Notes under the pieces: generated by a model
Told to the model about the DNA's origin: nothing
Databases searched by the model: none
Seen by the model: the letters and a program-made list of their open reading frames with translations, nothing else
Translations under genes and position numbers: made by a program
DNA from: Cirrosporium novae-zelandiae
Taxonomy: Eukaryota
DNA: 64,000 bases
Direction: 5' to 3'
Assembly: GCA_026023565.1 (NCBI GenBank)
Contig: JAPETS010000018.1
Coordinates: forward strand, 558,001-622,000
Shown: piece after piece, positions 11,844 to 14,495 of the stretch
Layout of the letters: each line of letters starts with the position of its first letter
Numbering within the stretch: the first letter of the stretch is position 1

Positions 11844-12588
11844 ATGGCTCCCAAGGTTGCTATCGTCTTTGTGAGTACATCTTCCAGCCATTCTACGGCG
11901 TGGTGGTGGTATTTTTGTCTTTACTAACATGTTTTCTTCTAGTATTCCATGTATGGCCACATCAAGCAATTGGTCGAGGCCGAGAAGAAGGGCATTGAAG
12001 CTGCTGGTGGCAAGGTCGACGTCTACCAGTGAGCATTCCATATACCAACCAGCCAATTAGATCAAGTGTACTAACCATCTCACCCTTAGAGTCGAGGAAA
12101 CCCTTCCTCAAGCAGTCCTGACTGCCATGCACGCCCCTCCCAAATCAGACTATCCTCTTATCACCCCCGAAAAGCTCGCTGAATACGATGCATTCCTCTT
12201 CGGTATCCCAACAAGATACGGCAACTTCCCCGCCCAATGGAAAGCTTTCTGGGACAAGACTGGCGGTCTCTGGGCTACCGGTGGTCTCTGGGGTAAATAT
12301 GCTGGTCTCTTCATCTCCACTGGCACCATGGGTGGTGGTCAAGAATCCACTGCTATTGCTGCCATGAGCACTCTCGCCCATCATGGAATCATCTACGTTC
12401 CTCTCGGATACAAGACCGTCTTCCCTATCCTATCAGACTTGAGCGAAGTTCGGGGTGGAAGCGCCTGGGGTGCTGGTACTTTCTCTGCCGGTGATGGTTC
12501 CCGCCAACCCTCAGCCAAGGAACTTGAGCTTGCCTCGGCACACGGAAAGCAATTCTACGAAACTGTTGCAAAGGTTAATTTCGCCTGA
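11844..12588 (+). CDS. PST2: Flavodoxin-like NAD(P)H:quinone oxidoreductase (WrbA/Pst2/Ycp4/Alt a 7 family)
   Basis: Exons 11844-11870, 11943-12028, 12090-12588. Motifs [55 protein letters not shown] possible extended isoform runs to 12738 (see findings). Confidence 0.95.
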
Positions 12589-13236
12589 CTCCATGGCAGT
12601 ACAAATGGCGAGGCTGCCAAGAAGCAGGAAGCTAAGCCATCCACTACCAAGACCAGTCCGACAGAAGAACGGACAGCGGAGGAGCAGGAGAAGGAAGGTG
12701 GACCTTGTGGGCTACCTAAGAAGTGCACCATAATGTAAATAAATAATACCAATGAAATATTTATGATCTACCCTTTCGATTTTCCAATTAGTACATTTTT
12801 GTCCTTCAACCGCCAATTATGCAATTGTTATAGAGGCCAATAATATATCAACCAAAGTTGGTAGCAACGTCTACACAACAACTTACGTCTGTTTACTTGC
12901 AAAGGAAAAAATTAAAAAAGGAACTAATAACCGATACCAGTCCCAATCGCAAGGAACACCATCATTTTAGTTAGTCTACATTGTCAAAAAAAATTACGGA
13001 TGCAACATCTAGCACAGCATCCGAAACTCGCACCGATCTCTCTCCGCAGTATAGAAGGCCATCCATAAACATTAGGACCTGACTTTCTCCAACACCAAGA
13101 CAAATCATCAATTAACCCAAGTACCAACCAACCCTACTCCAAAATCCTCTTCATCCAAACCCACCCACCCCTTACAAAAAAGAAAAAAAAAATCCCCCTT
13201 CTACGAATTAATAAGAAGAGCACATCAAAAAAAACA

Positions 13237-13342
13237 AGCCGAACGTGGGGGTCGAACCCACAACCTTGAGGTTTACTCGACGTTGAATCTGTTTGGATTC
13301 AAACTTAAGAGCCACACGCTCTACCGATTGAGCTAGCCCGGC
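13237..13342 (-). tRNA. tRNA-Lys(CTT) with intron
   Basis: Reverse complement reads GCCGGGCTAGCTCAATCGGTAGAGCGTGTGGCTCTTA[about 33-nt intron]ACCTCAAGGTTGTGGGTTCGACCCCCACGTTCGGC. A and B boxes and acceptor stem are present, followed by a poly-T Pol III terminator (A-run 13227-13234 on +). Confidence 0.93.
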
Positions 13343-14495
13343 CTTTTTTATTTGTTGTAAGTTGGGGGGGTTTTTGGGGCTTATTAATTAATTAATGGTG
13401 GGATTGATGGTGGGATAGTCGGGAAGCTGGTGGGGTTTGATAGTTAGGGTTTATGACCTAATTAGTTATCTTGGAGGGGGTTCGGTGGTTTTTTGTTCCG
13501 GGTTATATAGTAAGGTAAAGTAAAGTAAAGAAGGTATGGTAAGGTATCAAATTGGTAGTATTAGGCGTAGGAAATTCGGGGTTGTCATATATATATACAT
13601 ATACATATGGTAAAGGATAAACGTTTTTTTCTTCTTCTTCTAACGTATGGGTATTTTTTGATAGTCTATAACTTAGTAATATAAGATATGTCAAAAGGGT
13701 TTTAACCTGGGTGAATGTTTTGAATTCGAAATAGTTTACGTCGTAGATGATGATGTATATGTGGTCTGGTTACGTTCTGAGGAAACGATATTTTTTTATT
13801 TTTTTATTATTTTTATGAATATTAGAAAAGGTTTAATTGTTTATATTCCTTTAGCTAGTGATCTTGATCTTTGATGCATCTTCTCGTAGGTACTCAGCCA
13901 ATCCTGGTATTACCTCAATGCCTTTCCCCAAAAGAGCTTTCACTTCGGAAGCTATTCGCGGCGGTTGAACTCGGTAGGGCATTTTTGTTGAGATCTCTTC
14001 TCTCCATCCTATTATAGCTAATAGGGCCTTTGCTATCCCGCATTTGTTCATTTTTCTCAAGACCCTTTATCCAACCTCTTCATATTGCCATGGAATCCTC
14101 GTTATGGTCTAAAGTTAGATTCGATTTACCTCCAGTACTACTTCTACCGTCTCATTTACTTTCCAGCTTGTATAATATAAAAATCTTGCCCATCGGGGCT
14201 AGCATACCTGTTGCCATATTAGGTGAATGATTCTTTCTTTTACTACCAATCACGCATTCTATGAACGAAAGGTTTACTTATCCTCTATCTTGGCTATCTT
14301 GAGTTACCGAATATACACAAAGTATATTAAATCTAGCATCCATACGAAATGCTCAGGATGTCCCGCATCCACTTTGCTTTTAATTATATAATAGGCGTAT
14401 CTACCAGATATTCTCATATCAGTGTGCAATCCAGATTCATTCCTTACACAGATAGTGTACAAGAGTCTGGACATTATTCTTAAATTTAATACACC

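Follow-up and report, generated by a model that had tools for sequence, protein, structure and literature searches.

One quinone reductase gene of Cirrosporium novae-zelandiae probably encodes both a soluble enzyme and, beyond a UGA-CU stop context, a form with a CaaX tail

Freitag et al. reportedly described, in 2012, peroxisomal isoforms of glycolytic enzymes that are made by readthrough. In the hepatitis D virus, RNA editing removes a stop codon and the large delta antigen gains an extension of 19 residues, which is farnesylated. The subject of this study is a gene for a flavodoxin-like quinone reductase of Cirrosporium novae-zelandiae (Pezizomycotina, class Xylobotryomycetes), whose reading frame stays open past a UGA stop codon and ends in a CaaX box. 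It lies in a window of 64,000 nucleotides, this being the whole stretch of DNA analysed (assembly GCA_026023565.1, contig JAPETS010000018.1, positions 558,001 to 622,000 of the forward strand; coordinates below are those of the window). Based on the conservation of the extension in other fungi, we propose that a soluble quinone reductase and a membrane-bound one are probably both made from this single gene. As with the delta antigen, there would be two forms per open reading frame (ORF), the longer of them gaining a CaaX box, but that system is viral and depends on editing, not on readthrough.

The published systems closest to this gene are the following. In fungi and animals, UGA CU(A) readthrough produces isoforms of glycolytic and other enzymes that carry the peroxisomal targeting signal PTS1 (Stiebler et al. 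2014, PMC4207609). For efficient readthrough in Ustilago maydis, CU behind the UGA is enough, whereas UAA or UAG lower the efficiency, which depends mainly on the two bases that follow the stop; a read-through UGA can be decoded as Trp, Arg, Cys or Ser, and fungi have no selenocysteine system (PMC4207609). The extended motif of animals is UGA CUA G (PMC12233894). According to a 2023 review, fungi use readthrough to make peroxisomal PTS1 isoforms, and alternative splicing substitutes for it in other genes or species (PMC10688622). Predicted lipidation signals behind leaky stops have been noted in one Drosophila readthrough extension, with a predicted prenylation signal (PMC3840789), and in the readthrough extension of Arabidopsis MT1C, with a predicted CaaX box (bioRxiv 10.1101/2021.11.09.467898). 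Like the extension described here, these end in a predicted CaaX box; they are, however, single-gene predictions, and as far as the accessible text goes, neither a conservation of the signal between species nor an assay of lipidation is given for them, whereas in the present case 36 clusters of related loci share the motif.

In yeasts, C. albicans Ycp4 carries a C-terminal extension, about 90 residues long, whose last residues form a CAAX box (Li et al. 2015, PMC4556627), and the yeast flavodoxin-like proteins protect the plasma membrane against oxidative damage (PMC4556627). Ycp4 of Saccharomyces and Candida and the gene considered here have in common the WrbA/Pst2-type core and a low-complexity C-terminal extension ending in CaaX. 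They differ in that yeasts have separate long and short paralogues with no intervening stop, whereas here the TGA at 12586-12588 splits one gene.

The three-exon gene, together with its tail, spans 11844-12738 on the plus strand. The short form of 203 residues (11844-12588) is encoded by exons 11844-11870, 11943-12028 and 12090-12585, followed by the stop. In this exon model, intron 1 has 72 nucleotides (11871-11942, plus strand, GTGAGT...TACTAAC...TAG) and intron 2 has 61 nucleotides (12029-12089, plus strand, GTGAGC...TACTAAC...TAG); the model matches the protein deposited for this gene, P0001, exactly as far as residue K199. In relatives, matches start from residue 1 on mRNA-like contigs and from about residue 10 on long contigs, which fits intron 1. 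The core scores as a WrbA/Pst2-type flavodoxin-like NAD(P)H:quinone oxidoreductase with the TIGR01755 model (206.8 bits, cut-off 132.5) and with NF002999 (207.1 bits, cut-off 141), and exon 3 alone matches Pfam FMN_red (E 1.3e-08). The closest solved structure is that of S. cerevisiae Pst2 (5mp4, 'Protoplast secreted protein 2'), with E 1.9e-85 over core residues 3-199, and the core is also matched by E. coli WrbA (2r96, E 9e-52). Pst2 and bacterial WrbA are thus alike in the core, but have no CaaX tail. The gene product is predicted to be a WrbA/Pst2-type flavin mononucleotide quinone reductase.

The last core codons, GCA AAG GTT AAT TTC GCC (AKVNFA), are followed by TGA at 12586-12588. Past it, 49 codons are open in the same frame (LHGSTNGEAAKKQEAKPSTTKTSPTEERTAEEQEKEGGPCGLPKKCTIM), ending in GGPCGLPKKCTIM and TAA. 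The first 37 codons (LHGSTNGEAAKKQEAKPSTTKTSPTEERTAEEQEKEG, 12589-12699, plus strand) form the putative readthrough linker, which is charged, rich in Thr, Pro, Lys and Glu, and varies between species. The remainder is a conserved candidate lipidation module, recognised by its motifs, GPCGLPKKCTIM (12700-12735, plus strand), comprising an upstream Cys codon at 12706-12708, a Lys pair at 12718-12723 and the CaaX box CTIM at 12724-12735. The terminal stop of the extended form, TAA, is at 12736-12738 on the plus strand, and an AT-rich 3' flank lies beyond it: the G+C content is 0.54 in the core exon, 0.54 in the extension and 0.32 in the 150 nucleotides beyond TAA. All of the sequence details listed in the first-pass annotation of this DNA (AKVNFA-TGA, the 49 codons, CTIM, the Cys, the Lys pair, a possible donor AAG|GTTAAT and the downstream AGs) were reproduced from the letters.

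The proposed leaky stop and its context, TGA CTC CAT GG (12586-12596, plus strand), were read from the letters. After UGA there is C at position +4 and U at +5. Both +6 and +7 are C, and UGA CUA G, the extended motif, is thus departed from at +6. The residues LHGS and the pattern TGA CTN CAT GG are common to the window and to several clusters of the readthrough type (L002, L008, L010, L015 and L026, for example), and the final 14 residues of the extension are the same as those of the relative L002.

Among the best 120 database matches, 13 NCBI long forms of 236-262 residues were aligned (in alignment A1). The genera represented include Aspergillus, Penicillium, Paecilomyces, Lachnellula, Ciborinia, Teratosphaeria, Phyllosticta, Flavoplaca and Glutinoglossum. 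In all of the aligned long forms, a variable linker is followed by the common motif GPCGLPxKC-a-a-X. A scan of metagenome contigs with this alignment yielded 80 loci, which fall into 68 clusters with the window or 67 without it, at a nucleotide identity around the stop of at least 95%. The genomic loci of the relatives have introns at varying places and only a short segment in common.

Among the 67 non-window clusters, an in-frame extension ending in CaaX is present in 36 of the 39 with TGA followed by CT, compared with 3 of the other 28. Two of the remaining TGA-CT clusters (L053 and L080) lie on contigs that end before a tail could show, and in one (L043) the extension stops after 15 codons. 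The three other clusters with an in-frame CaaX extension have TGA in a different context, namely TGA TCG in L001 and TGA ACG in L034 and L036. No CaaX extension is seen in six more clusters with TGA in other contexts. The 14 clusters with TAA and the five with TAG also have no in-frame CaaX extension past the stop; four of the TAA clusters splice to the tail, and one (L060) has the tail before the stop. The extensions in the 36 TGA-CT clusters have 44-85 codons and end in C-x(3-6)-CaaX. A second Cys lies 3-6 residues upstream of the CaaX box in all 39 clusters with an in-frame CaaX extension, in 35 of them at a spacing of 5, and the final residue is L in 16, M in nine, A in five, S in three, and Q, V or I in two each. 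Where a CaaX tail is missing (26 clusters), the frame past the stop is open for 1-40 codons. This, together with the coding-like G+C content and the identity with L002, argues that the open extension in the window is more than a chance event.

The extension is under coding-type selection. In the 36 clusters, none of the 2,108 codons in frame 0 is a stop, as compared to 54 stops in frame +1 and 127 in frame +2, which hit 29 and 34 of the 36 clusters, respectively. The ratio of nonsynonymous to synonymous substitution rates (dN/dS), calculated by the NG86 method for the 11 pairs with at least 60% identity in the extension, is below 1 in all 11. It ranges from 0.11 to 0.39 in ten of them, the outlier being the little diverged pair L006-L007 (0.85), and for the linker only it is 0.10-0.41 in nine of the 11 pairs. 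Thus the comparison of 3' regions proposed in the first-pass annotation finds TGA-CT, the open frame and the C...CaaX end conserved together in 36 of the 67 clusters, with dN/dS below 1 in every close pair.

The bases following TGA are also constrained. The consensus of the 36 clusters is TGA CT(A29/G7) (G21/C12)(A34)(T30) (G35)(G31), that is, conservation is tighter than the encoded Leu-Asp/His-Gly demands. CT follows none of the 13 TGA codons that terminate a frame past the CaaX box in these clusters, and none of the six stops of the tail-less TGA clusters. Since these other TGAs at the same loci have no CT context, TGA is an ordinary stop in these fungi. A global reassignment of TGA was considered and rejected, as 14 of the 39 extensions themselves terminate at TGA. 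Insertion of selenocysteine at the UGA was dismissed as well, because the machinery is missing from fungi, as stated in PMC4207609.

The stop codon is retained in the spliced mRNA of relatives. Twenty of the 36 TGA-CT clusters are contigs of 1.0-1.8 kb with one intron-free ORF from Met to TGA, and loci on contigs longer than 2 kb are all interrupted by introns. The 20 mRNA-like contigs retain the TGA and extend 27-888 nucleotides beyond the CaaX stop. For one of them, L015 (1,106 nucleotides), a genomic counterpart is available: it equals L073 at 99.5-100% identity, minus introns of 63 nucleotides (GTGAGT) and about 54 nucleotides (GTAAGT), and the two align without a gap from a point ahead of the TGA through the extension and the 3' untranslated region to the contig end. 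None of the 20 mRNA-like contigs has a junction at the Lys codon of AKVNFA. The central suggestion of the first-pass annotation, that one locus yields a short soluble form and a CaaX-tailed form, with readthrough as the first-named mechanism, gains support from the conservation in 36 clusters, the dN/dS values and these stop-keeping spliced contigs.

With fair confidence, we take UGA readthrough to be the most likely mechanism in the window. Most ribosomes would terminate at the UGA at 12586-12588 and release the soluble enzyme of 203 residues ending in AKVNFA. As the UGA-CU context would terminate poorly, a minority of ribosomes would insert a near-cognate residue, usually Trp, Arg or Cys, and add 49 codons; the extended isoform of 253 residues would have a flexible charged linker and the end GPCGLPKKCTIM. 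In CaaX processing a final Met predicts farnesylation, and a nearby Cys and Lys-Lys would reinforce membrane binding. Accordingly with that rule, CTIM would be farnesylated, and the Cys six residues upstream, along with the Lys pair, may act as a second membrane signal through palmitoylation and a basic patch. Because only the extended form carries this module, we propose that a small, constant fraction of the enzyme would be anchored to a membrane, most probably the plasma membrane, where it may keep membrane quinones reduced, as was proposed for the separately encoded Ycp4 paralogue of yeasts. For this organism, the readthrough itself, its efficiency, the inserted residue, the lipidation and the location are what we infer from the sequence.

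The tail is not hidden, as the first-pass annotation had it, since the deposited model already contains it. The deposited protein P0001 has 240 residues and bears the NCBI name 'MAG: Minor allergen Cla h 7 [Cirrosporium novae-zelandiae]'. Exons 11844-11870, 11943-12028, 12090-12573 and 12613-12738 give it exactly, and the tail is reached via a modelled intron of 39 nucleotides (12574-12612, plus strand, GTTAAT...GAG) at the donor AAG|GTTAAT (12573|12574) named in that annotation. This modelled intron has no CTAAY, and its sole branch-like motif is CTGAC, 11 nucleotides past the donor. It differs from the real introns of the gene (72 and 61 nucleotides, GTGAG[TC], TACTAAC, TAG) in the donor, the branch motif, the acceptor and the length. 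CTGAC at 12585-12589 was rejected as a branch point, given its distance of only 11 nucleotides from the donor and because an intron ending at the next AG would have 26 nucleotides and break the frame. We judge the intron at 12574-12612 to be an annotation work-around rather than a real intron.

Database models of relatives disagree at the same junction. Of the 13 aligned long forms, 11 leave the core after the Lys of '..VAK' and skip the region of VNFA and the stop; these are P0001 and ten others (P0002, P0003, P0005, P0006, P0037, P0054, P0066, P0068, P0088 and P0107). These other models probably bridge the stop much as the 39-nucleotide intron does in the window. Two long forms continue without a stop, P0041 (..KINFATAGG..) and P0013 (..KVSFVGTAV..). 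The short forms, of 203-205 residues, end in K/R-VNFA. The NCBI models thus do not contain the junction VNFA-X-L(H/D)G, with a near-cognate residue as X, that readthrough would produce. Finally, three environmental proteins that come from other pipelines have W at the position of the stop: P0019 (VNFA-W-LDGS), P0087 (KA-W-LHGW) and P0027 (VNHQ-W-IHGS). This W presumably represents TGA read as Trp, and so the tail would be in the frame of a TGA in the contigs of P0019, P0027 and P0087.

A true intron is found at this place in one clade of six clusters, whose core ends in ..AFGA (L037, L047, L057/L058, L071, L034 and L036/L038). Here the stop lies inside a canonical phase-1 donor, G|GTGCGTAA or G|GTGCGTGA (type G|GTGCGT), and a single CTAAC or CTAAT (CTAAY) is situated 45-110 nucleotides downstream. 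The introns have 63-133 nucleotides, and the frame of the tail is restored by the first AG past the branch motif in five clusters and by the second AG in one. Relative to the stop, the tail is in frame 0 in two clusters, +1 in one and +2 in three. The mRNA-like contig L047 keeps its intron, which suggests alternative splicing in this clade; hence alternative splicing of this gene end does exist in fungi. A third arrangement is that of the yeast-like L060, which encodes the tail in one open frame ending in ..LLSCCTVM, although the GPCGLPxKC motif of the Pezizomycotina is not seen in it. Judging from these loci, the same tail appears to be reached in three ways, by a leaky stop, by an intron and by one open frame. 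Two tail-less paralogues, L048 and L055 (..NRHKFD, with TAG and TAA, respectively), are tandem neighbours on a single contig, about 1.7 kb from each other, an arrangement that recalls the adjacent flavodoxin-like protein genes PST3 and YCP4 of C. albicans, as described in PMC4556627.

An unlikely alternative to readthrough, though the first among the rivals, is splicing in the window itself, either constitutive or alternative: an intron starting at AAG|GTTAAT (12574) would drop VNFA-TGA and join the tail to the core, and its retention would yield the short form. The acceptor could be the deposited one at 12612 or an AG at 12621, 12624, 12627 or 12651. All five would preserve the frame, P0001 was built in exactly this way, the 11 NCBI long models switch from core to tail after the same Lys, and the AFGA clade demonstrates a true intron at this place. 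The signals in the window are poor, however, with the donor GTTAAT, the acceptor GAG, a length of 39 nucleotides and CTGAC only 11 nucleotides past the donor. All six clusters of the splicing clade have a GTRNGY donor close to the stop, but the 37 clusters of the readthrough type, counting the window, have none, nor was a CTAAY branch motif found close to the stop in any of these 37. Ten of the 36 relatives have a residue other than Val behind the Lys, and hence no GT at that spot. The 20 mRNA-like contigs and the colinearity of L015 with L073 speak against a junction as well. Moreover, splicing offers no reason for stop and tail to share one frame in every case, with no further stop between them, whereas the frame varies in the clade that truly splices. 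Of the alternative intron proposed in the first-pass annotation, therefore, the donor at 12574 and the AGs at 12627 and 12651 are real, and the deposited model uses that donor, but the signals are poor and are not conserved.

Slightly less probable again is the possibility that the gene makes the short form only, the tail being a recently disabled or very weakly expressed relic whose termination was tightened by the change of A or G to C at +6. The CTC of the window, unique among the 37 clusters, would agree with that. On the other hand, all 49 codons are open, both Cys, the Lys pair and the CaaX box are preserved and match a relative exactly, and the G+C content of the extension is coding-like; moreover, the core motif of PMC4207609 requires CU only. 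Editing offers another route to the same long protein. If adenosine-to-inosine (A-to-I) editing of the mRNA turned UGA into UGG (Trp) in a particular stage, the long form would be made in that stage only, and an open in-frame extension like the observed one would be required too. A-to-I editing has been reported for sexual stages of some Pezizomycotina, but fungal editing favours U before the edited A, and here this base is preceded by G. Nor would editing lead one to expect the conserved CT(A/G) behind the stop, and the base is A in all 20 mRNA-like contigs, so that we consider this route improbable. Finally, this could be a long gene with one frame whose TGA is either a private nonsense allele or an error made in sequencing or assembly, a concern raised already in the first-pass annotation. 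The assembly appears to be a metagenome-assembled genome, and P0041, P0013 and the yeast-like L060 do run on without a stop. Yet a Logan contig of the probable source run covers 12300-12900 with no differences at a word depth of 343. It does not represent an independent individual, but as a second assembly it implies that TGA and CTC are not errors of the deposited one. In the search of sequencing runs that gave this probable source run, two more runs of the same study shared next to none of the sampled words, and no RNA run came up. With the same TGA at the same place in 36 other clusters, an error or a private allele is hardly credible.

Several observations weigh against UGA readthrough to a membrane signal, or weaken the case for it. 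The clusters are related by descent, and the counts given above are not independent trials. CTC after TGA occurs in the window only, the 36 relatives having A (29) or G (7) at +6. L043 (TGA-CTAGAT, 685-1211) is a TGA-CT locus with no tail, being either a chimeric assembly or a lineage that has lost the tail, and L001 has its in-frame tail behind TGA TCG rather than TGA-CT. Downstream of the stop, no RNA structure consistently shared among ten folds was found (z from +0.32 to -3.37). Three of these ten folds reach z of -2.9 or lower, the window among them: for its 100 nucleotides from the stop, z is -2.9 and one of 200 shuffles is equally good, with a hairpin about 9 nucleotides past the TGA (12594-12650). 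The mRNA status of the 1-kb contigs is deduced from missing introns and is direct for the L015/L073 pair only. Contigs of this metatranscriptome-like kind reveal the main isoform, and a minor spliced form could escape. Lipidation and location, for their part, are predicted from knowledge of the motifs.

Two further observations concern sequences adjacent to these loci. The contig of L043 continues into the start of an unrelated ORF resembling a translation GTPase (..ILAHVDHGKTSL..). In the window, a tRNA gene lies on the minus strand at 13237-13342, about 500 nucleotides downstream of the reductase gene (Rfam RF00005, 46.9 bits, full model). It is 106 nucleotides long and hence must contain an intron; ARAGORN, run on 12500-14000, missed it.

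Compared with peroxisomal UGA-CU(A) readthrough, the proposed system has the same UGA followed by CU, a conserved in-frame extension, a short sorting signal at the C terminus and an enzyme of which a small part would be redirected. Also as there, alternative splicing takes over in some lineages and one open frame in others. The differences are the CaaX box with an upstream Cys instead of PTS1, so that the expected target is a membrane surface rather than the peroxisome matrix, the extension of 44-85 codons with a variable linker, the flavodoxin-like family, and C rather than A at +6 in the window. Full-text literature searches turned up no paper that describes readthrough for a fungal flavodoxin-like protein, or fungal readthrough that leads to a CaaX box; subscription-only papers and supplementary tables (such as Table S1 of PMC4207609, with all TGA-CT genes of U. 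maydis, perhaps one of this kind among them) lay outside the search. Relying on conservation, we therefore see here the established UGA-CU readthrough in a gene family new to it, where lipid anchoring may be a new output. Somewhat more tentatively, though we still favour it, this would be an old trait of the Pezizomycotina: readthrough to a double-Cys CaaX end, setting a fixed ratio of cytosolic to membrane enzyme per mRNA, and exchanged elsewhere for a 3' intron (the AFGA clade) or for paralogues (yeasts).

If UGA readthrough does operate in this gene, many database models would misrepresent the junction, whether they break off at the stop or bridge it by tiny introns, and hence proteome searches based on them would miss the junction peptide. 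The UGA-CU signal would then control membrane anchoring too, a second destination beside peroxisomal import, and filamentous fungi would obtain from one gene both a Pst2-like and a Ycp4-like quinone reductase.

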